A stretch of 64,000 nucleotides of DNA from an uncultured Alphaproteobacteria bacterium (lineage in GTDB: Bacteria; Pseudomonadota; Alphaproteobacteria; Rhizobiales; Xanthobacteraceae). The stretch is from NCBI GenBank assembly GCA_963843225.1, contig CAWJJT010000009.1, forward strand, positions 62,916 through 126,915, in the 5' to 3' direction. Of this stretch, positions 50,204 to 58,872 are shown in pieces. The notes under the pieces are model-generated. The model did no database searches, was not told the origin of the DNA, and saw nothing but the letters and a program-made list of their open reading frames with translations. Both the position numbers and the translations under genes were made by a program. Every line of letters starts with the position of its first letter. Within the stretch, counting starts at the first letter, position 1.

Positions 50204-50285
50204 CGGATTTCTTGACCTCGGCGATTTGGAATCGGGAGGGAACACTACCGGCTAGCGTTTGCCGTGCAAAATACTTCCGCTATCC

Positions 50286-50312
50286 TGTCGGAAACCCGGC
50301 CGCTCATTCGTC
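50286..50312 (+). promoter_or_regulatory. ECF42-type promoter 1 (TGTCG-N16-TTCGTC) for the yciI-ECF operon
   Basis: TGTCG GAAACCCGGCCGCTCA TTCGTC. Confidence 0.8.
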
Positions 50313-50337
50313 CTCGATCAAAAGGGAACCCCTTCGC

Positions 50338-50706
50338 ATGCTCTACGCCATCCTTTGCTATCACGACGAGGACCTCGTCGGCTCCTGGACCAAGGAGCAG
50401 GATACCGCGGTGATCAAGAAGCTTGCCGTCGTGCAGGACAGACTGGCCAAGCAGGGCCGGCTCGGGCCCGTGGCGCGGCTGTTGCCGACGACATCGGCGA
50501 CCACGCTGCGCAAGGACGATCCGCCGGTCGTGCTCGACGGTCCCTATGCCGAGACCAAGGAGCAGTTGCTCGGGTTCTACCTTGTCGACTGCAACAATCT
50601 CGACGAGGCGGTCGACGTCGCGCGCGATCTCGGCGCGGCCAATCCCGGTGGCGCCTACGAGATCCGGCCCGTCGGGCTGTATCAGCCCGGAGAGGTGACG
50701 AGATGA
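50338..50706 (+). CDS. YciI/DGPF family protein
   Basis: DGPYAETKEQLLGFY, YEIRP. Confidence 0.92.
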   Translation: MLYAILCYHDEDLVGSWTKEQDTAVIKKLAVVQDRLAKQGRLGPVARLLPTTSATTLRKDDPPVVLDGPYAETKEQLLGFYLVDCNNLDEAVDVARDLGAANPGGAYEIRPVGLYQPGEVTR

Positions 50707-51974
50707 CCGACACCGCCTGGATCGACGCCGCGCTGACCTCGGCGCGTCCCCAGGCGGTCGGCGCGCTGCTGCGCTATTTCCGCAATCTCGACACCGCCGA
50801 GGAAGCGTTCCAGAACGCGTGCCTGCGGGCGCTGAAGAGCTGGCCGCAGAACGGTCCGCCGCGCGACCCCGCGGCGTGGCTGATCATGGTCGGGCGCAAC
50901 GTCGCGATCGACGAGGTGCGGCGCAACCGCAAGCAGGAGCCGCTGCCCGAGGACGAGGCGATCTCCGACCTCGACGACGCCGAGGAGCAGCTCGCCGAAC
51001 GGCTCGACGGCTCGCACTACCGCGACGACATCCTGCGGCTGTTGTTCATCTGCTGCCATCCCGAACTGCCGGCAACCCAGCAGATCGCGCTCGCGCTGCG
51101 CATCGTCTCCGGCCTGACGGTGAAGCAGATCGCGCGCGCCTTCCTCGTCAGCGAGGCGGCGATGGAGCAGCGCATCACCCGCGCCAAAGCCCGCGTCGCG
51201 GGGGCCGACGTGCCGTTCGAGACCCCGGGCGCGGTGGAGCGCGCCGAGCGGCTCTCGGCGGTTGCCGCGATGATCTACCTGATCTTCAACGAGGGCTATT
51301 CAGCCGGCGGCGACACCGCCGAGATCCGTGGGCCCCTGTGCGAGGAAGCCATTCGGCTGGCGCGGCTGTTGCTGCGGTTGTTCCAGGGCGAGCCCGAGAT
51401 CATGGGGCTGACCGCGCTGCTGTTGTTGCAGCACGCCCGCGCGGCGGCGCGCTTCGACGCCGACGGTGCCCTGGTGCTGCTCGACGATCAGGACCGCAGC
51501 CTGTGGAATCAGCAGTTGATCGCCGAAGGCCTGGCGCTGATCGACAAGGCGATGCGGCACCGCCGCAGCGGGCCATATCAGGTCCAGGCGGCGATCGCCG
51601 CGCTGCATGCCCGCGCCGCCAGACCCGAAGAGACCGACTGGACCCAGATCGATCTGCTCTACGGCGCGCTCGAGATCATGCAGCCGTCGCCGGTGGTGAC
51701 GCTCAATCGCGCGGTCGCGGTGTCCAAGGTGCGGGGGCCGCAGGCCGCGCTCGACATGATCGAGCCGCTTTCGTCGCGGCTGTCGAACTATTTCCATTAT
51801 TTCGGCGTGCGGGGCGCCTTCCTGATGCAGCTCGGCCGCAACGACGAGGCCCGGATCGCGTTCGACCGCGCCATCGCGCTCGCCAACACCTCGGCCGAGG
51901 CCGCTCACATCCGCATGCATCTCGACCGGCTGATGCGCGACAGCGCGCCGCGCAACACGAAGGCGGCGAAATAG
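50703..51974 (+). CDS. ECF RNA polymerase sigma factor with long TPR-containing C-terminal extension (ECF42-type)
   Basis: AEEAFQ, WPQNGPP, LFICCHP, GLTVKQIARAF, QRITRAK, YLIFNEGY, GPYQVQAAIAALH, TDW, LNRAVA; coupled to a DGPF gene. Confidence 0.9.
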   Translation: MTDTAWIDAALTSARPQAVGALLRYFRNLDTAEEAFQNACLRALKSWPQNGPPRDPAAWLIMVGRNVAIDEVRRNRKQEPLPEDEAISDLDDAEEQLAERLDGSHYRDDILRLLFICCHPELPATQQIALALRIVSGLTVKQIARAFLVSEAAMEQRITRAKARVAGADVPFETPGAVERAERLSAVAAMIYLIFNEGYSAGGDTAEIRGPLCEEAIRLARLLLRLFQGEPEIMGLTALLLLQHARAAARFDADGALVLLDDQDRSLWNQQLIAEGLALIDKAMRHRRSGPYQVQAAIAALHARAARPEETDWTQIDLLYGALEIMQPSPVVTLNRAVAVSKVRGPQAALDMIEPLSSRLSNYFHYFGVRGAFLMQLGRNDEARIAFDRAIALANTSAEAAHIRMHLDRLMRDSAPRNTKAAK

Positions 51975-51992
51975 CGGCGCAACGCCTGTCGA

Positions 51993-52018
51993 GCCGCGCA
52001 GGATCGCTGCGCGGTTTC
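51993..52018 (+). terminator. Possible terminator hairpin after the ECF gene
   Basis: GCCGCGCAG-GATCG-CTGCGCGGT followed by a short T run; between convergent genes. Confidence 0.4.
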
Positions 52019-52054
52019 ACGACATTTGCGGGAGCGGCTGTCAGCGACGCGGCG

Positions 52055-52261
52055 TCAGCCGCGTTCGGCGACGCTTTTGAGCACGAGACCGGTCAGCCGG
52101 ACCACCAGCGCTCGCAATCGCGCGTTTTCCTCGAGCAGCGACGTCACGCCGTCCGAATGGTCATCGTCTGCATAGTCTTCGTCGTGGAGCGGTGATTCGT
52201 TTAAATATTCCAGTTCGTCGCGAAATTCTTGTTTGCGATCCGGCGGATATGCGGGTCCCAT
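52055..52261 (-). CDS. Small hypothetical protein
   Basis: MGPAYPP...SLLEENARLRALVVRLTGLVLKSV; coiled-coil-like C-terminus. Confidence 0.5.
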   Translation of the reverse strand: MGPAYPPDRKQEFRDELEYLNESPLHDEDYADDDHSDGVTSLLEENARLRALVVRLTGLVLKSVAERG

Positions 52262-52439
52262 GATTACTAATCCCCTAATTAACGTCGCCGAACGTACCCC
52301 TCGTTCTGTCGCGCAAGGTGGATTGAGTTGGGGGCGAATTTGCGACCGAATTTGGGACGCGCGACGACATGATTTTTTTCCGCGCCGACGAGCACCGCAC
52401 ACCCCCAGCGTGAAATGCGGAAGAAATCATCATCGCGGT

Positions 52440-52466
52440 TGTCGAATGACGCGCCCCTCGTTCGTC
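52440..52466 (+). promoter_or_regulatory. ECF42-type promoter 2, upstream of DoxX
   Basis: TGTCG AATGACGCGCCCCTCG TTCGTC. Confidence 0.8.
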
Positions 52467-52501
52467 TTGTGATCATGTCATGCGAACGATGGAGAGGCGC
52501 G

Positions 52502-52951
52502 ATGAATGTACAGGACGGTAATCTGGTCGGCGAGGCCACGCCGGCAATCCCGGAGCTGCCGCCGGCATCGGGCCCGGCGCGGTGGCTCGGCCGCGGCCTC
52601 AGCGGTCTTGTCATCGTGTTTTTGCTGTTCGACGGGGCCATCAAGCTGGTGCCGTGGCCGGTTGTCACGGAAACGATGGACCGCATCGGCTATGGTTCGA
52701 GCGAAGCGCTGGCGCGGACCCTGGGCGTCATCACGGTTGCCTGCACCGTTCTCTACGCGATCCCGCCGACGTCGATCCTGGGCGCGATCCTGTTGACCGG
52801 ATATCTCGGCGGCGCGATGGCCTCGCATCTGCGGATCGACAGCCCGCTGTTCACCCACACGCTGTTCGGATTTTATCTCGGGCTGATGGTGTGGGGCGGG
52901 CTGTGGTTGCGCGACCGGAAATTGCGGGCCTTGATGCCCTGGCGGCGCTGA
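52502..52951 (+). CDS. DoxX family membrane protein
   Basis: FDGAIKL, PPTSILGAILLTGYLGGAMASHLR, WGGLWLRD. Confidence 0.88.
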   Translation: MNVQDGNLVGEATPAIPELPPASGPARWLGRGLSGLVIVFLLFDGAIKLVPWPVVTETMDRIGYGSSEALARTLGVITVACTVLYAIPPTSILGAILLTGYLGGAMASHLRIDSPLFTHTLFGFYLGLMVWGGLWLRDRKLRALMPWRR

Positions 52952-52972
52952 TCGAGATATTTTCGGAGGCCG

Positions 52973-52999
52973 TGTCGGATCGCGCCAGCGCCGTTCGTC
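52973..52999 (+). promoter_or_regulatory. ECF42-type promoter 3, upstream of SRPBCC-VOC
   Basis: TGTCG GATCGCGCCAGCGCCG TTCGTC. Confidence 0.8.
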
Positions 53000-53051
53000 C
53001 TCGGGCCGAGTTATTGGGCTGAACGATTGAAATGTGACAACGGAGTATTCC

Positions 53052-53588
53052 ATGTTTGAAACCATTGCCGTCATCGCCGCCGTGCTCGGGCTCGCGATCG
53101 TGGCCATACTGATCCTCGCCGCGACCAGGCCGAACACCTTCAGCGTGCAGCGCGCCACGACCGTAAGGGCGCCGGCGGAAAAGATATTTCCGCTGATCAA
53201 CGATTTCCGTCAGTGGGGAAGCTGGTCGCCCTACGAGCACAAGGACCCCGCGATGAAGCGCACCTTTGGCGGCGCGGCGAGCGGCAAGGGTGCGGTCTAT
53301 GCGTGGGACGGCAACAAGAATGTCGGATCCGGCCGCATGGAAATCCTCGACACGTCGGCGCCGGCGAAGATCGTCATCAAGCTCGATTTCTTTACGCCGT
53401 TCGAAGGCCACAACACCGCCGAATTCACAATGCTGCCGCAGGGCGATGCTACCAACCTGACGTGGCTGATGCACGGCCCGGCGCCGTTCATGGCGAAGAT
53501 CATGCATGTGTTCATGAACATCGACCGCATGGTCGGCAAGGATTTTGAGATCGGTCTCGCCAATCTGAAACGGCTCACCGAGAAATAA
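53052..53588 (+). CDS. SRPBCC / polyketide cyclase family protein with N-terminal TM
   Basis: WGSWSPY, GKGAVYAWDGNKNVGSGRM, VGKDFEIGLANLK. Confidence 0.9.
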   Translation: MFETIAVIAAVLGLAIVAILILAATRPNTFSVQRATTVRAPAEKIFPLINDFRQWGSWSPYEHKDPAMKRTFGGAASGKGAVYAWDGNKNVGSGRMEILDTSAPAKIVIKLDFFTPFEGHNTAEFTMLPQGDATNLTWLMHGPAPFMAKIMHVFMNIDRMVGKDFEIGLANLKRLTEK

Positions 53589-53622
53589 TCCGACATCGAC
53601 AGCGACCACCAAGGAGAAGGCG

Positions 53623-54033
53623 ATGCAGGTCAATCCCTATCTGTTCTACGACGGCAATTGCGAAGCGGCGTTCAAGTTCTACGAAAAGGCGCTCGGCGCG
53701 AAGATCGAGCTGATGTTGAGAAACGAGGAGGCACCGGAGTCGATGCCGGCGCCGCCGGAACGGAAAAAGAAGATCATGCACGCCAGGATGACGATCGACG
53801 GCACGGTGCTGATGGCGTCCGACGCGCCTCCCGAACACTTTCACAAGCCGCAGGGCTTTTCGGTCTCGCTCACGGTCGGCGAACCCGCCGAGGCCGAGCG
53901 CAAGTTCAAGGCGCTGTCGGAAGGCGGCAGCGTCAACATGCCCTTCAGCAAGACCTTCTTCTCCAGGGGGTTTGGCATGTGCGTCGACCAGTTCGGCATT
54001 CCCTGGATGGTCAACTGTCCGCCGGAACAGTGA
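53623..54033 (+). CDS. PhnB-like VOC family protein
   Basis: NPYLFYDGNCEAAFKFY, IMHA, LMASD, DQFGIPWMVN. Confidence 0.92.
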   Translation: MQVNPYLFYDGNCEAAFKFYEKALGAKIELMLRNEEAPESMPAPPERKKKIMHARMTIDGTVLMASDAPPEHFHKPQGFSVSLTVGEPAEAERKFKALSEGGSVNMPFSKTFFSRGFGMCVDQFGIPWMVNCPPEQ

Positions 54034-54040
54034 TCGCGTT

Positions 54041-54481
54041 CTACCGGCACCTCGGATAGATCGCGGCGAGTTCGCGCCCGCGCAGCAGCAGCATGCGCGA
54101 ACTCAATCCGCCGCGGCGCATGATCCAGCCGCGCACCGCTTCGGGATAGGCCTGCAGGACTACCTTTGATGCCTCCGGCTCGGAATACATCCGCCCCCGC
54201 CGGTCGACCGAGCGCGCGGCGTGGAAGCCGAGGACCGCGCGGCGGGTGACGCAGATGCGGTCGCCCGGCACCACGTCGAGCACCAGCGTGCAGGCCGACA
54301 GGCAGGGCCCGTCGATCACCACGCGCTCGCCCGACTCGCGCACCCGTTCGAACAGATCGAGGAACGATCCGACTTCGCCGCCGGGGCTGGCAAGGATGCG
54401 GATCTCGGCGCGCGCGACACCCGGAACGGCCGCGCAGAGCAAGCTTGCGAGAAGGACTGCCTTCAAGGCCGCCTTTGCCAT
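54041..54481 (-). CDS. Exported hypothetical protein (SPGG...IDGPCLSACT motif)
   Basis: Signal peptide; SPGG, VVIDGPCLSACTL, LGFHAA resemble ClpP/crotonase-like small rhizobial proteins. Confidence 0.7.
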   Translation of the reverse strand: MAKAALKAVLLASLLCAAVPGVARAEIRILASPGGEVGSFLDLFERVRESGERVVIDGPCLSACTLVLDVVPGDRICVTRRAVLGFHAARSVDRRGRMYSEPEASKVVLQAYPEAVRGWIMRRGGLSSRMLLLRGRELAAIYPRCR

Positions 54482-54629
54482 GAGCGCGCTCCCGGTTGCG
54501 GTGAACAACCGAGATAATCAACGGCGCGTCGTGCGCAAGGTCAACCGGCGCGGCTGGCGGCGCGCGTCCTGCAGCGCGTTCACGATCGTGAGCGCGCTCC
54601 GGTGGAGTAGTCCATCGAATCTGGGACGG

Positions 54630-54920
54630 TCACGCCGTCCTGTTCTTGAGGGCGCCGACGATCGCCGTAAGAACGGCACCGGCAACGCCGCCACCGGCCA
54701 CCTGACCGATGATGCTGCCGATATCCGGCGTCGAGGCGCTGTTGGCAAGCAGGGGAATCAGCATGCCGAGGATCTGTCCCCCGGCGCCTCCCCCGATTGC
54801 ACCTGCGATCGTGTTTCCGACTGTACCCAGATCGATATTCTTGGCGGCACCGGCGGCAACATTTCCGCCGACGGCCCCGCTGATGATCTGGATGATCAGA
54901 TTGATGAGTAATCCCGACAT
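54630..54920 (-). CDS. Small Gly-rich membrane protein
   Basis: IIQIISGAVGGN...GNTIAGAIGG...GGVAGAVLTAIVG. Confidence 0.75.
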   Translation of the reverse strand: MSGLLINLIIQIISGAVGGNVAAGAAKNIDLGTVGNTIAGAIGGGAGGQILGMLIPLLANSASTPDIGSIIGQVAGGGVAGAVLTAIVGALKNRTA

Positions 54921-55083
54921 GGCGCGATACTCCCCGATCCGGTGTTCGGTTTCAGTGCTGGATGCGACGCCGGACCACCGCCGCGCGGCGCGCAACTTAA
55001 GCGTTTGCAGCGCGAAGGTCACGCTGCGCCGGCGAACGACCCGGATGAAAACTGTGGAGATCGCCGGCGAGGAGGGAGAGGCG

Positions 55084-55872
55084 CTAGCCGTTGCGGCGCT
55101 GGCCGCGCAGCGTCGGCAGGCCAATGCCGGCGGCATCGAAGCCGCCGTCAACCGCGAGCACCTGTCCGGTGATGTAGCTGGCGCGGTCGCTGCACAGGAA
55201 GAACACGGCTTCCGCCAGTTCTTCCTCCAGTCCGTAGCGGTTGAGCGGAATGGCGTCGTGATAGTCGGCGCGGATCTCCGGCGTGTGGACGGCTTTCGCC
55301 ATTGCGGTCTCGACCGGGCCGGGCGCGACGCCGTTGACGCGGATGCCGAGCGAGGCCAGTTCGACCGCGAGTTGCTTGGTCAGATGCGCAAGGCCCGCCT
55401 TGCTGGTGCCATAGGCCGAACGCAGCGTGGAGGCGCGCACCGCCGAGATCGAGGTGATGTTCACGATCGCGCCGCCGCCTTGCTCACGCATCAGCGGCAC
55501 CGCCGCCTTGGTGCAGAGGAACGGCCCCGTGAGGTTGACCTCCAGCACCCGGCGCCAGTCCTCGTTGGAAGTCTCGAGCAGCGGCGCGAACACCGCGATC
55601 CCGGCATTGTTGACCAGCGCATCGAGCCGGCCGAAGCGCCGCTCGATTTCGGCAAACGCGCTTCCCACCGCGCTCGCATCGGACACGTCGCAATGCAGCC
55701 CCAGCGTTTGGCCCGCGGCGTTCAGCGCCTCCACGCTCTGCCACAGCAGTTCGCCCTCGATGTCGAGCAGCGCCACCCGCCAGCCCTCGGCGAGAAACTT
55801 TTTGGCGACGGCGAGCCCGATGCCGCGCGCGGCGCCGGTCACCAGCGCGACTTTTTGGGGGGCAGGGGTCAT
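55084..55872 (-). CDS. SDR family oxidoreductase
   Basis: TGAARGIG, NNAG, YGTSK, NGVAPG, ITGQVLAVDGG. Confidence 0.93.
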   Translation of the reverse strand: MTPAPQKVALVTGAARGIGLAVAKKFLAEGWRVALLDIEGELLWQSVEALNAAGQTLGLHCDVSDASAVGSAFAEIERRFGRLDALVNNAGIAVFAPLLETSNEDWRRVLEVNLTGPFLCTKAAVPLMREQGGGAIVNITSISAVRASTLRSAYGTSKAGLAHLTKQLAVELASLGIRVNGVAPGPVETAMAKAVHTPEIRADYHDAIPLNRYGLEEELAEAVFFLCSDRASYITGQVLAVDGGFDAAGIGLPTLRGQRRNG

Positions 55873-55981
55873 GGATCGATCCATCGTTGGCAGGGTCGTT
55901 GGTCTGTGCCGTCCCTAGCACGAAAGCGACGGGTCTGCTTTCCTATCCGGGCCGCATCGGCTGTGCAAAGGGTCGGATATC

Positions 55982-56365
55982 ATGAAGATCAGCGACATCA
56001 GGGATGCCTCGCCCGAATCCTGGCGGCCGGGGGTCGAGACGCGCATGCTGGTCTCGGCGCGCAATGGCGCGACGCAATTGTGCATCTTCGAGCAATGGGT
56101 CGCCCCGGGAACCGGCGCGCCGACGCACTCCCATCCCGTCGAAGAGGTGCTGACGGTGCGCGAAGGCGAGGCCGAGATGTGGATCGGCGAGCAGCGCCTC
56201 ACGGTGACCGCGGGCCAGTCCCTGATCGTGCCGGCGGGACGCAAGCATGGTTTCCGCAATTCCGGCGCCGCCACGTTGCATCTGCACGCGGTGCTGGCGT
56301 CGCCAATTTTCGAGATGACACCGGAAGGCGCGGTGGAACCGGTGCGAAGATGGGAAGCCCAGTGA
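55982..56365 (+). CDS. Cupin domain protein
   Basis: PTHSHPVEEVLTV...G, IVPAGRKHGFRN. Confidence 0.88.
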   Translation: MKISDIRDASPESWRPGVETRMLVSARNGATQLCIFEQWVAPGTGAPTHSHPVEEVLTVREGEAEMWIGEQRLTVTAGQSLIVPAGRKHGFRNSGAATLHLHAVLASPIFEMTPEGAVEPVRRWEAQ

Positions 56366-56397
56366 AAAACTCGAGGCGAAATAAATTTTAACCGGAA

Positions 56398-56424
56398 TGT
56401 CGGTCTGCCTCGGTTTCGTTCGTC
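56398..56424 (+). promoter_or_regulatory. ECF42-type promoter 4, upstream of NTF2-GST
   Basis: TGTCG GTCTGCCTCGGTTTCG TTCGTC. Confidence 0.8.
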
Positions 56425-56481
56425 GTCCCCGTGTTCGCTATACCGCTCCCTCGCGACAATCGCCGGCATGAGGAGCCTGAC

Positions 56482-56855
56482 GTGACAGCCCAAAGCAAGG
56501 CGGAAATCGTCCGCGCGCTCTTTGCCGCCTATCTCGTCGAATGACCGCAAGGCCGTCGAGGATTTTTTCGCCGACGATTTCCGCTTTACCAGTCCCTATG
56601 ACAACGGGATCGACAAGGCGACCTATTTCGAGCGCTGCTGGCGCAACAGCGACTGGATCGAACGGCATGAATTGGAGCAAATCCTTGTTCGATGGCGACG
56701 AGGCGTTTGTGACTTACGAATGCGTCGCCAAAGGCGGCAAGAGCTTTCGCAACACCGAGTTCTTCGCTTTCGCGGGCGACAAGATCAAACGTATCGACGT
56801 CTATTTCGGCGCCAGCTATCAGGATGGCGTTTTCGTCAAACAAGCCGAAGCTTGA
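56482..56855 (+). CDS. NTF2/SnoaL-like protein (frameshifts near 56535, 56685)
   Basis: GAGGAG RBS and GTG start; DDFRFTSPYDNGIDKATYFERCW, FRNTEFF, IDVYFG. Confidence 0.8.
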
Positions 56856-56867
56856 ATTGGAGTCCGC

Positions 56868-57514
56868 ATGTCGCTGAAGCTGCATTTCCACCCGCTGGCC
56901 TCATACTGCCACAAGGTCCTGATCGCGCTGTATGAGAACGATACGCCGTTCACGCCCAACATGGTCGATCTCTCCAGCGAGCGCGAACGGGCGGCGCTGT
57001 TGGCGATGTGGCCGATCGGCAAATTCCCGGTGCTGCGCGACGCCGCGCGCGAACAGACCGTCCCCGAATCGACTGTCATCATCGAATATCTCGATCGCCA
57101 TTATCCGGGCGCGACGCGGTTCATCCCGGTCGACACCGACCTTGCTGGCAGACGCGGCTGCGCGACCGGTTCTACGACCACTACGTGCATGAGCCGATGC
57201 AGAAGATCGTCGGCGACCGGCTGCGCCCCGAGGGCAAGAAGGATCCGCACGGCGTGGAGGAGGCGCGGGCGCGGCTGCGCGTCAGCTACGGCATGGTCGA
57301 ACAGGAGATGGCGACGCGGCGCTGGGCGATGGGCGAGGAATTCAGTCTCGCCGATTGCGCCGCCGCGCCTGCATTGTTCTATGCCAATGAGGTGATGCCG
57401 TTCGGCGACGAGCATGCCAACGTCGCCGCCTATCTCGATCGGTTGAAGGCGCGGCCATCCTACGCCCGCGTGCTGAAGGAAGCGGAGCCGTATTTCGCCA
57501 TGTTCCCGAGATAG
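56868..57514 (+). CDS. Glutathione S-transferase family protein (frameshift near 57147)
   Basis: HPLASYCHKVLIALYE, WPIGKFPVL, ESTVIIEYL, FSLADCAAAPAL, RPSYARV. Confidence 0.88.
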
Positions 57515-57559
57515 CTGCGATCCGGCCCGCAATTACTTCCGAAATAATTCCAGATCTCG

Positions 57560-57586
57560 TGTCGGTGGCGCAAAACCCTGTTCGTC
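57560..57586 (+). promoter_or_regulatory. ECF42-type promoter 5, upstream of the second YciI gene
   Basis: TGTCG GTGGCGCAAAACCCTG TTCGTC. Confidence 0.8.
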
Positions 57587-57641
57587 TTGTTGATGAGCGC
57601 CGGTCGGCAACCGGCCTGCGAAATCGAAACGGAGCGTGACC

Positions 57642-58058
57642 ATGCGATTCATGATGCTGATGATCCCCAAGGGCTACGAGACCGCGGCGCCGGGCACCAT
57701 GCCGCCCGTCGACGCGGTGGCCGCGATGATGAAATACAACGAAGCGCTGAAGGAGGCCGGGGTGTTGATCACGCTCGACGGGTTGCATCCGCCGTCGATG
57801 GGCGCGCGGGTCTCCTTCGCCGGCGGCAAGCCGATGGTGACCGACGGCCCCTTCGCCGAATCCAAGGAAGTGCTCGGCGGCTACTGGATGATCGAGGTAA
57901 AGTCGAAGGAGGAGGCGATCGCCTGGGCGAAGCGCTGCCCGGCTTCCAATAACGAGATCATCGAAATCCGCCAGGTCCAGGAATTCGAGGATTTCTCCCC
58001 CGAGGTGAAGCAGGCCGCGGCGGGATTTGCCGAGTTGCAGGCCGGAACCGGGGGCTGA
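57642..58058 (+). CDS. YciI/DGPF family protein
   Basis: GLHP, VTDGPFAESKEVLGGYW, EAIAWAKRCP, IEIRQ. Confidence 0.93.
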   Translation: MRFMMLMIPKGYETAAPGTMPPVDAVAAMMKYNEALKEAGVLITLDGLHPPSMGARVSFAGGKPMVTDGPFAESKEVLGGYWMIEVKSKEEAIAWAKRCPASNNEIIEIRQVQEFEDFSPEVKQAAAGFAELQAGTGG

Positions 58059-58123: not shown

Positions 58124-58142
58124 ATGTAAAAGCCTTTCACAT
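58124..58142. promoter_or_regulatory. Putative TetR operator overlapping the tetR start codon
   Basis: ATGTAAAAGCCTTTCACAT, an imperfect version of the perfect palindrome at 58926. Confidence 0.65.
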
Positions 58143-58872
58143 GAGCTGGCGCAAGGAAGAACGCCGCGCCGAGCGCGGCTATCATCACGGGAACCTGAAA
58201 GAAGCGCTGCTGCAGGCGGCGCTTGGGTTGATCGCGGAGAAGGGTGCGGCCGGCTTTACCTTCGCCGATGCCGCGCGGATGGCGGGCGTCAGTCCGGCGG
58301 CGCCATACCGGCATTTCCGCGACCGCGACGAATTGCTGTCGAGCATCGCGCAGCGCGGATTCGAACAGTTCGAAGCGGCGTTGACGCAAGCCTGGGATGA
58401 CGGGCGTCCCGACACCGTCACGGCGTTCGAGCGGGTCGGCAAGGCCTATCTCGCTTTCGCCCGCAACGAACCGGCGTTCTATTCGGCGATGTTCGAATCG
58501 GGACTTCCCGTCGACCTTAATCCTGCGCTGCAGGCCGCCAGCGAGCGCGCCTTCGGCATTATCAGGGCGGCAGCCGAGCGGCTCGCAGCACTTGCGCCGC
58601 CCGGCACGCCACGCCCGCCGGCGCTGATGATGGCACTGCACATCTGGTCGATGTCGCACGGCGTCGCCTCACTGTTCGCACGCGGCGATGCGGCGCGCCG
58701 CAAGCTGCCGATGTCGGCGGAGGATCTCCTGGAAGCGGAAGTGCTGATCTATCTGCGCGGTCTCGGCTTCCCGACCGAGCGACGGCCTTCCGCGCCGAAT
58801 GGGCCGACCGATCAAAAACCGCCTGGACCACCCCCGGTCCCTCCATCGGGCCCCTGGGGCACCCCAAAATAA
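58141..58872 (+). CDS. TetR/AcrR family regulator (WHG-like C-terminal domain)
   Basis: YHHGNLKEALL, AGVSPAAPYRHFRDRDELL, WSMSHG. Confidence 0.92.
   Translation: MSWRKEERRAERGYHHGNLKEALLQAALGLIAEKGAAGFTFADAARMAGVSPAAPYRHFRDRDELLSSIAQRGFEQFEAALTQAWDDGRPDTVTAFERVGKAYLAFARNEPAFYSAMFESGLPVDLNPALQAASERAFGIIRAAAERLAALAPPGTPRPPALMMALHIWSMSHGVASLFARGDAARRKLPMSAEDLLEAEVLIYLRGLGFPTERRPSAPNGPTDQKPPGPPPVPPSGPWGTPK

Follow-up and report, generated by a model that had tools for sequence, protein, structure and literature searches.

Five copies of a bipartite motif, TGTCG-N16-TTCGTC, in the window (the entire 64-kb stretch of DNA analysed here, from a soil Bradyrhizobium) are very probably promoters of an adjacent ECF42-type sigma factor, which would drive both the surrounding gene cluster and a set of dispersed units with a ligand- or electrophile-handling output. 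A pattern search of the window returned exactly five matches, starting at positions 50286, 52440, 52973, 56398 and 57560. All lie on the + strand in intergenic DNA, 25, 35, 52, 57 and 55 nt from the start codon for P1 to P5, respectively, which confirms the positions, orientation and 25–57 nt spacing of the original prediction. The layout of the cluster, in window coordinates, is as follows:

50286..50312, + strand: promoter P1, TGTCGG-N14-ATTCGTC, before yciI1-sigma; exact match
50338..50706, + strand: yciI1, YCII/DGPF-type, 122 aa; ATG at 50338; Pfam YCII, E 1.3e-18
50703..51974, + strand: ECF42-type sigma factor, RpoE10 orthologue, 423 aa; Pfam Sigma70_r2, Sigma70_r4_2, DUF6596, TPR_2
52440..52466, + strand: promoter P2, TGTCGA-N14-GTTCGTC, before doxX; exact match
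52502..52951, + strand: doxX, DoxX_2 membrane protein, 149 aa; ATG at 52502; Pfam DoxX_2, E 1.2e-17
52973..52999, + strand: promoter P3, TGTCGG-N14-GTTCGTC, before SRPBCC-VOC; exact match
53052..53588, + strand: SRPBCC, 178 aa; ATG at 53052; Pfam Polyketide_cyc2, E 1.6e-11, and AHSA1
53623..54033, + strand: PhnB/YjdN-like VOC, 136 aa; Pfam 3-dmu-9_3-mt and Glyoxalase
56398..56424, + strand: promoter P4, TGTCGG-N14-GTTCGTC, before NTF2-GST; exact match
56482..56855, + strand: SnoaL_2/NTF2-like gene; GTG at 56482; three-frame translation
56868..57514, + strand: glutathione S-transferase (GST); Pfam GST_N and GST_C on two pieces
57560..57586, + strand: promoter P5, TGTCGG-N14-GTTCGTC, before yciI2; exact match
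57642..58058, + strand: yciI2, YCII, 138 aa; ATG at 57642; Pfam YCII, E 3.7e-23
58141-58872: TetR gene, directly downstream of the cluster

The predicted gene identities hold up in Pfam searches, that of the NTF2-like gene by way of an intact orthologue (SnoaL_2/DUF4440). The yciI1 stop codon overlaps the sigma start codon (ATGA), and the yciI2 translation contains the DGPF motif. The SRPBCC protein carries a hydrophobic segment at its N-terminus, while the VOC protein matches NCBIfam YjdN below the cutoff and has 1u6l and 3oms (PhnB) as PDB relatives; among the target proteins, the nearest solved structures all belong to uncharacterised proteins. The NTF2-like gene is disrupted by two 1-nt insertions (about 56533-36 and 56689-91), the extra bases being absent from metagenome contigs, and the GST gene by one 1-nt deletion (about 57145), where a metagenome contig retains the missing G and the gene is in frame in relatives. 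These frameshifts are probably assembly errors.

The genome-wide scan proposed alongside the original prediction yielded 14 exact matches in 6.58 Mb. Out-of-phase spacers gave 11–26 matches owing to codon usage, making raw counts by themselves unimpressive, and four of the 14 N16 matches are intragenic and look like chance, as would be expected were the sites fortuitous or left over from a repeated or mobile element. However, codon-phase-matched control spacers (N = 10, 13, 19 and 22) returned 2–5 matches each, and dinucleotide-preserving shuffles gave on average 0.04 matches per 64 kb and never more than 1, against five sites packed into 7.3 kb. Moreover, the sites have their boxes and an A/T tract in common, but not their flanks, and orthologous positions are kept in dozens of species, by which an origin by chance or repetition is effectively refuted and its probability close to nil. 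The A/T-rich patch, at –20 to –9, accompanies 7 of the 14 N16 matches as opposed to 0–2 matches with each other spacer and 3.3% of positions drawn at random; this enrichment argues that the patch, likewise predicted originally, is real. In a search allowing two mismatches, no site was found upstream of the SDR, cupin, Gly-rich, secreted or 68-aa hypothetical genes, and no sigma70-type promoter was detectable within the cluster.

Footprinting of about 100 Bradyrhizobium loci revealed the motif within 220 nt upstream of yciI1 in 64 of 79 loci (13 of 17 in another locus set), before doxX in 25 of 30 and before yciI2 in 21 of 27, and the Ensifer orthologue of yciI1-sigma has the same site as P1. 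In relatives, the motif precedes NTF2 or GST, whichever gene comes first, and in loci lacking doxX it lies directly before SRPBCC; a P3 separate from P2 was seen only in the closest relatives. In line with the claim that the interleaved SDR, cupin and hypothetical genes lack the motif, it was absent in the Bradyrhizobium loci before 44 SDR, 30 cupin, 44 secreted-hypothetical and 17 Gly-rich genes, as well as before 21 tetR, 71 phnB and 80 sigma genes. Spacers diverge between loci with the boxes kept. Among 132 distinct sites, positions left unconstrained by the search were also conserved (G6 ~90%, TT before CGTC 70–90%, A/T tract 80–100%), and 31 genomes contained 158 motif sites versus 13 for a reversed control.

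The sigma factor consists of Sigma70_r2 (residues 15-77), Sigma70_r4_2 (residues 114-164) and a C-terminal extension (residues 165-423) with DUF6596 at 183-284 (E 5.5e-34) and a weak TPR_2 match at 370-395 (E 0.0012, below gathering score); NCBIfam places the protein in the sigma70-ECF superfamily. Its assignment to ECF42 is by proxy: over 410 aa it is 75% identical to the Ensifer orthologue of S. meliloti RpoE10, and RpoE10 itself was classed as ECF42 with ECFfinder (Lang et al., PMC6180224). The YCII protein upstream is 59% identical to its Ensifer counterpart, and a YCII gene directly precedes the sigma gene in every Bradyrhizobium locus examined. No anti-sigma gene was found among the neighbours, all but one of which have other family assignments; the exception, an acidic 68-aa ORF encoded on the other strand, is present in just 7 of 80 loci and therefore cannot be a conserved sigma partner. 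Domain searches and neighbour assignments thus bear out a TPR-bearing tail, a DGPF neighbour and no anti-sigma, and the locus fits the ECF42 traits of regions 2 and 4, C-terminal extension, no anti-sigma, adjacent YCII and a TGTCG(A/G)...CGTC/CGAC promoter.

In S. meliloti, SMc01149-SMc01148 and SMb20475-SMb20474 are induced when RpoE10 is overexpressed (Lang et al. 2018, mSphere, PMC6180224), with mapped TSSs downstream of TGTCGG-N15-TTCGTC and TGTCGG-N15-TGCGTC; these are the two responsive operons, four genes being raised at least 2-fold and six in total. The system described here resembles RpoE10 in its orthologous sigma factor with YCII directly upstream and no anti-sigma, in the TGTCGG-N15-TTCGTC form of its promoters with an upstream A/T tract, and in adjacent targets with AHSA1/SRPBCC, SnoaL-type NTF2 and VOC domains. 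Whereas the present cluster has SnoaL and VOC as separate genes, Ensifer has AHSA1 and then a SnoaL_3::Glyoxalase fusion behind an RpoE10-type promoter. Owing to this orthology, the identity of the motif to TSS-mapped promoters and the genus-wide conservation of the sites, assignment of the promoters to an ECF42-type sigma factor, with an adjacent regulon as originally predicted, is well supported.

As the TetR gene directly downstream illustrates, the motif could instead be the operator of a DNA-binding regulator. We regard this as highly improbable, given that the motif is non-palindromic, always points towards a gene at a promoter-like 25–57 nt from the start, keeps a 16-nt spacer fixed in length and free in sequence, coincides with S. 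meliloti promoters of known TSS and sigma-dependence, and recurs at distant loci with no TetR gene nearby. A more serious contender lies within the ECF42 group itself. The genome encodes three DUF6596 sigma factors, each behind a YCII gene, the two further ECF42 paralogues (on contigs C1 and C18) being 42% and about 50% identical to the one in the window. The YCII gene of the C1 paralogue has an exact TGTCG-N16-TTCGTC upstream and that of the C18 paralogue TGTCG-N16-TTCGAC, and the core of the region-4 recognition helix is common to all three. A sigma-to-promoter assignment is consequently not unique, and a paralogue might serve these promoters mainly or redundantly, in which case the cluster would not be the regulon of its own sigma factor. 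Against this, the sigma gene in the window (contig C9) has four of the cluster's five promoters right beside it throughout the genus, the S. meliloti orthologue suffices by itself to induce the equivalent adjacent operon, and overall identity to the paralogues is just 42–50%; we thus hold a principal role of the paralogues to be improbable and retain the adjacent sigma factor as the likely regulator.

Five more promoter-like sites were identified on other contigs, preceding an MFS transporter, a Ku paralogue, AHSA1 (accompanied by a small, possibly YciI-like gene), SnoaL_3 and a second YCII-ECF42 operon. The MFS site is kept in 18 of 21 orthologues, the SnoaL_3 site in 3 of 3 and the AHSA1 site in 2 of 2, and an independent pattern scan found the Ku site in at least 13 of 30 other genomes. 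Hence, of the clustered regulon originally proposed, the five units in the cluster stand, while the predicted regulon as a whole is only half clustered. Compared to the two operons of S. meliloti, five promoters in an 8-kb cluster and at least five elsewhere add DoxX, GST, an MFS transporter, a Ku paralogue and extra YCII genes, and two further ECF42 paralogues are present. The earlier claim that targets extend beyond DGPF genes is true but not new, since RpoE10 targets in S. meliloti already included a hydrophobic-ligand/SRPBCC protein and glyoxalase-like proteins outside DGPF/YCII (PMC6180224).

More distant systems share parts of this arrangement. ECF41 (SigJ; S. meliloti RpoE9) likewise has a fused C-terminal regulatory domain, no anti-sigma and a TGTC...CGTC promoter skeleton (RpoE9 site, PMC6180224), but combines a SnoaL_2 extension with a TGTCACA –35, as opposed to DUF6596/TPR and TGTCGG here. 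Pseudomonas putida ECF-10 belongs to the same ECF group, with a similar genomic context per Lang et al. (PMC6180224), and is known to us from a knockout phenotype only (stress/antibiotic resistance and biofilm, reported by Tettmann et al. 2014), which offers no promoter-level regulon for comparison.

Similarities extend to Streptomyces venezuelae, whose ECF42 factors have a C-terminal TPR extension (there essential for activity), no anti-sigma, DGPF/YCII neighbours and targets, and a TGTCG-type –35 with CGTC/CGAC –10, and differ in being actinobacterial with several paralogues. Those factors, Sven_0747, Sven_4377 and Sven_7131, were reportedly studied by Liu et al. in 2018 (J Bacteriol), and their main targets are reported to be the DGPF genes themselves; to our knowledge, no SRPBCC, VOC, GST, Ku or MFS target set has been reported for them.

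In the proposed mechanism, RNA polymerase carrying the sigma factor (50703-51974) would read the –35 TGTCGG through region 4 and the –10 (G/A)TTCGTC, 14 nt beyond, through region 2, with an AAAWWWTTT tract 9–18 nt upstream of the –35 as a probable UP-like element. If the mapped S. meliloti sites are a guide, the TSS is predicted to lie about 8–9 nt past CGTC. The regulatory part of the sigma factor, with no anti-sigma partner, would be its C-terminal DUF6596/TPR extension. YCII is the leading candidate partner for this extension, as the two proteins share an mRNA in which the stop codon of yciI1 overlaps the sigma start codon; in other ECF42 members the TPR extension is essential for activity and a role of YCII is suspected (PMC8999054). 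Once active, the sigma factor would switch on yciI1-sigma, doxX, SRPBCC-VOC, NTF2-GST and yciI2, together with at least five further units (MFS, the possibly YciI-like gene with AHSA1, SnoaL_3, the Ku paralogue and the second YCII-ECF42 operon). The sole pointer to autoregulation of yciI1-sigma is the P1 site; overexpression of RpoE10 failed to induce the S. meliloti YCII-rpoE10 operon (PMC6180224), which argues against simple autoregulation, and 42 of 61 Bradyrhizobium yciI1 promoters contain an additional CATAAT-like element in the spacer.

The inducing signal and the biochemical function of the regulon are what we infer from its contents. Small proteins that bind ligands or handle thiols/electrophiles make up most of the products, so that the most likely output would be the binding, conversion and export of a small hydrophobic or electrophilic compound, most likely along with double-strand-break repair; family names make detoxification plausible. 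A more specific proposition, to which we attach a small though not trivial chance, casts the regulon as a defence dedicated to a natural product that damages DNA or is strongly electrophilic. SRPBCC/AHSA1, SnoaL, VOC, GST, DoxX, YCII and the MFS exporter would then be co-induced with the Ku paralogue, and YCII would sense the ligand and activate the sigma factor through its TPR extension. If true, this would be the first physiological role and signal for the very widespread ECF42 group.

The system is a larger version of the S. meliloti RpoE10 regulon, an advance of extent and not of kind, because the motif, the YCII neighbour and SRPBCC/NTF2/VOC targets were already published for that species. 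As far as the literature covered shows, neither a Ku paralogue nor an MFS transporter had been placed in such a regulon before, and their predicted inclusion points to testable stresses. For ECF42, one of the most widespread groups of ECF sigma factors, the Bradyrhizobium locus offers an unusually clean, genus-conserved read-out, with ~10 promoters of sharp consensus, five of them within 8 kb, that are usable as reporters when screening for inducers and as test cases for an interaction between YCII and the sigma factor.

A pattern search of the 64-kb window for TGTCG-N16-TTCGTC returned exactly five matches, compared with a mean of 0.04 in dinucleotide-preserving shuffles of the same sequence. 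Gene coordinates of the cluster were set by translation and, in agreement with the original prediction, place all five sites in intergenic positions on the + strand, 25–57 nt ahead of a start codon:

50286, + strand: P1, intergenic, 25 nt before the start codon of yciI1
50338–50706: yciI1, YCII by Pfam
50703–51974: sigma factor of 423 aa, with Pfam Sigma70_r2, Sigma70_r4_2, DUF6596 and a weak TPR match
52440, + strand: P2, intergenic, 35 nt before the start codon of doxX
52973, + strand: P3, intergenic, 52 nt before the start codon of the SRPBCC gene
56398, + strand: P4, intergenic, 57 nt before the start codon of the NTF2-like gene
57560, + strand: P5, intergenic, 55 nt before the start codon of yciI2

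The yciI1 stop and the sigma factor start overlap (ATGA). Pfam matched the gene names proposed from sequence for the further targets, i.e. DoxX_2, Polyketide_cyc2/SRPBCC, PhnB-type VOC, GST (in two pieces) and, for yciI2, a second YCII with a DGPF motif; the NTF2-like gene (SnoaL_2/DUF4440) was identified on its intact orthologue. Of the interleaved genes, four lie on the − strand and code for an acidic 68-aa product, a secreted hypothetical protein, a Gly-rich membrane protein and an SDR; the fifth is a cupin gene. The motif had not been seen before the SDR, cupin or hypothetical genes, and none of the five has a site even when two mismatches are allowed. The strongly acidic 68-aa ORF (52055–52261, − strand), located between the sigma gene and doxX, recurs in 7 of 80 related loci, has no family match and carries no motif in front. 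Across the cluster, a terminator scan gave matches no more numerous than in shuffles, and a sigma70 promoter scan gave none.

The genome-wide scan proposed with the original prediction was run on the source assembly, a Bradyrhizobium genome (G000; 6.58 Mb, 18 contigs, 64% G+C; window on contig C9), and yielded 14 strict matches. Four of these lie within coding sequence and look like chance occurrences, while ten are promoter-like, being intergenic, facing a start codon at a distance of 25–70 nt and having an A/T patch upstream. The chance background of the motif varies with codon phase: phase-matched control spacers (N=10, 13, 19, 22) gave 2–5 matches each, and out-of-phase spacers 11–26. The upstream A/T patch was present at 7 of the 14 N16 matches vs. 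0–2 at other spacers and 3.3% of random positions, an enrichment confined to N16 among the spacers compared. A weight-matrix scan, its matrix overfitted to the ten training sites, found nothing between these sites (score ≥29) and background (≤15). The predicted clustering thus holds for five sites, but as many promoter-like sites lie elsewhere, and the layout is half-clustered, half-dispersed. The dispersed sites are:

C1: before a YCII gene, with genes for a second ECF42-type sigma factor and a GST behind it
C3: before the gene of a 121-aa protein without Pfam family and, after it, that of an AHSA1-type SRPBCC protein
C3, 2.3 kb beyond the preceding site: before an MFS_1 transporter
C4: before a SnoaL_3 protein
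C4:811886–811912: before Ku, followed by a RidA-like gene

In total, the genome encodes three DUF6596 sigma factors, each with a YCII gene in front; the YCII gene of the third, on C18, is preceded by TGTCG-N16-TTCGAC, and a lone YCII gene on C2 by TGTCGG...ACGTC. Just upstream of the MFS promoter lies a ~90-nt element (C3:207250–207344, about L043:4251–4345 in the corresponding locus) with dozens of matches per genome at ~90% identity across Bradyrhizobium; it resembles dispersed short repeats of REP/MITE kind.

All 24 congeners searched have the cluster in syntenic form. Across 17 full-length orthologous regions, the pattern TGTCG-N18-CG[TA]C recurred before yciI1, doxX, yciI2 and GST and/or NTF2 (two genes found in either order), and before SRPBCC instead in regions lacking doxX; distinct sites before both doxX and SRPBCC occurred only in G000 and its closest relatives. 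Among 80 further loci, where the motif was scored within 220 nt upstream of a gene, it preceded yciI1 in 64/79 cases, doxX in 25/30, yciI2 in 21/27, SRPBCC in 13/50, GST in 7/16 and NTF2 in 5/10. By the same measure it was found before none of the SDR (0/44), cupin (0/30), secreted hypothetical (0/44), Gly-rich (0/17), tetR (0/21), phnB (0/71) or sigma (0/80) genes. Dispersed sites were likewise kept before 18 of 21 MFS, 3 of 3 SnoaL_3 and 2 of 2 AHSA1 orthologues. Alignment of 132 distinct sites revealed conservation at positions that the search had left unconstrained, including the G after TGTCG (~90%), the TT before CGTC (70–90%) and a G/A ahead of TT-CGTC, as well as an AAAWWWTTT tract at −18 to −9 from the −35 element (80–100% A/T). 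Over 31 genomes, TGTCGG-N15-TTCGTC occurred at 158 sites vs. 13 for the reversed control; this tally includes four sites of one unpublished genome (G015) that is excluded from the counts on fetched loci (the 17 regions, the 80 loci and the MFS, SnoaL_3 and AHSA1 orthologues). In several relatives, the yciI2 promoter lies 500–630 nt from yciI2 (L022:11152–11796, L023:11323–11852, L024:1266–1832, L025:1916–2574), leaving space for an additional gene. In a genome from another family of the order (G031, L039:2474–3965), the sigma gene is followed by an ECF42-type site, behind which lie genes for an alpha/beta-hydrolase and for a protein of the GFA (glutathione-dependent formaldehyde-activating) family; targets therefore differ by lineage yet remain within small-molecule chemistry.

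The adjacent sigma factor is an orthologue of Sinorhizobium meliloti RpoE10, which is classed as ECF42 and whose overexpression induces SMc01149–SMc01148 and SMb20475–SMb20474 (Lang et al. 2018, PMC6180224). Of the promoters listed there upstream of mapped TSSs, those of SMc01149 and SMc01151 (YCII) fit TGTCG-N16-TTCGTC exactly, and that of SMb20475 departs from it solely in TGCGTC. For promoters of exactly this form, RpoE10 is enough for activation, and the TSSs lie ~9 nt after CGTC. The study describes SMc01149 as a protein that binds hydrophobic ligands, and both SMc01148 and SMb20475 as glyoxalase-like (PMC6180224). A pattern search with the published SMc01149 promoter retrieved a locus of Ensifer sp. 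USDA 6670 in which genes for an AHSA1 SRPBCC protein and for a SnoaL_3::Glyoxalase fusion stand behind the promoter. The sigma factor of this locus and that of the C9 cluster share 75% identity over 410 residues, and the YCII proteins are 59% identical. Given these data, experiments in an alphaproteobacterium had already linked this sigma orthologue to the motif and to target families other than YCII/DGPF. The predicted target breadth, borne out here by SRPBCC, VOC, NTF2, GST and DoxX genes behind sites, was therefore known from S. meliloti (PMC6180224). For B. japonicum USDA 110, the published dRNA-seq study names only RpoD- and RpoN-like motifs (PMC4842269).

Together, orthology to RpoE10, motif anatomy and the fact that sites are conserved in front of certain genes and not others support the reading of the clustered and dispersed sites as an ECF42-type regulon of the adjacent sigma factor. 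This factor, rather than a paralogue, would read all ten promoters; the two paralogues are 42% and ~50% identical to it and share the same region-4 helix core. The A/T tract may act as an UP-like element. The TPR extension of ECF42 factors is essential for activity, its interaction partner is unknown, and the conserved YCII neighbor is suspected to be involved (review PMC8999054); YCII, whose translation is coupled to that of the sigma factor, might be the partner of this extension.

Autoregulation of the yciI1-sigma operon is uncertain, since the yciI1 site is conserved, yet the YCII-rpoE10 operon of S. meliloti is not induced by RpoE10 (PMC6180224), and many yciI1 promoters contain a further element. 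This element, conserved as CATAAT/CATACT (GGCATAAT/GGCATACT), lies in the ECF42 spacer of 42 out of 61 distinct yciI1 promoters from Bradyrhizobium (L047–L126; e.g. L023:732–758); it is found in none of 71 target-gene promoters and is absent from P1 of G000 and from its subclade. This distribution suggests an overlapping housekeeping −10 element that would provide basal expression, and may explain the lack of autoinduction in S. meliloti.

By an independent pattern scan cross-referenced with Ku matches, at least 13 of the 30 other genomes have an exact TGTCGGAAC-type site immediately in front of a Ku homologue; the best DNA match per genome was a paralogue without a site. These promoters are strikingly uniform, all Ku sites reading TGTCGGAAC, and the form at C4:811886–811912, TGTCGGAACC...GTTCGTC TTGAATCC, is deeply conserved. 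The second Ku copy of G000 (C3:620025) has no ECF42-type promoter. A dual EcfG/general-stress promoter was considered and rejected, as no Ku locus contained a GGAAC-N16-17-CGTT match. The papers cited here do not mention a link between ECF42 and non-homologous end joining.

The regulon products are predicted to handle a hydrophobic or electrophilic small molecule. A relationship of the targets to enediyne/bleomycin-type resistance proteins found no support: in sequence searches of the PDB, all matches were structural-genomics proteins of uncharacterised function (1z94, 1u6l, 3oms (PhnB), 3f7s), and the SRPBCC protein had none. The 121-aa protein (C3:208959–209321, equivalent to L043:5960–6322, − strand; relatives e.g. 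at L209:355–711 and L208:460–810) belongs to a conserved family without Pfam match even at E≤1 or NCBIfam match. The main cluster of most relatives carries its gene directly after yciI2. G000 has no copy between yciI2 (end at 58058) and tetR (start at 58141); the gene stands behind an ECF42-type promoter of its own, before AHSA1. Atlas clusters name it 'putative YciI family', but hhalign against YCII gave only 2–23% probability and its AlphaFold model a pLDDT of 51; the protein may represent a divergent YciI-like fold.

Several conserved genes are broken in G000 (estimated completeness only 80%): NTF2 by two +1 shifts (56533–56536, 56689–56691), GST by one −1 shift (57145), Ku by three shifts in 0.9 kb (C4:811948–812900), and also MFS (C3:205800–207100) and the C18 sigma gene (C18:405180–406430). 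That NTF2 and GST are true pseudogenes was judged unlikely: independent soil-metagenome contigs of close relatives have one base fewer at 56533–36 and at 56689–91 and an extra G after 57145, coinciding exactly with the three inferred indels, and both genes are in frame in relatives. The shifts in these two genes are thus most likely long-read assembly errors, and with such frequent single-base indels, gene calls in G000 need frameshift-tolerant reading.

The regulon is an enlarged ECF42/RpoE10 system whose basic type was already known; what is added here is its size, its mixed clustered and dispersed layout, and its predicted DoxX, GST, MFS and Ku members.
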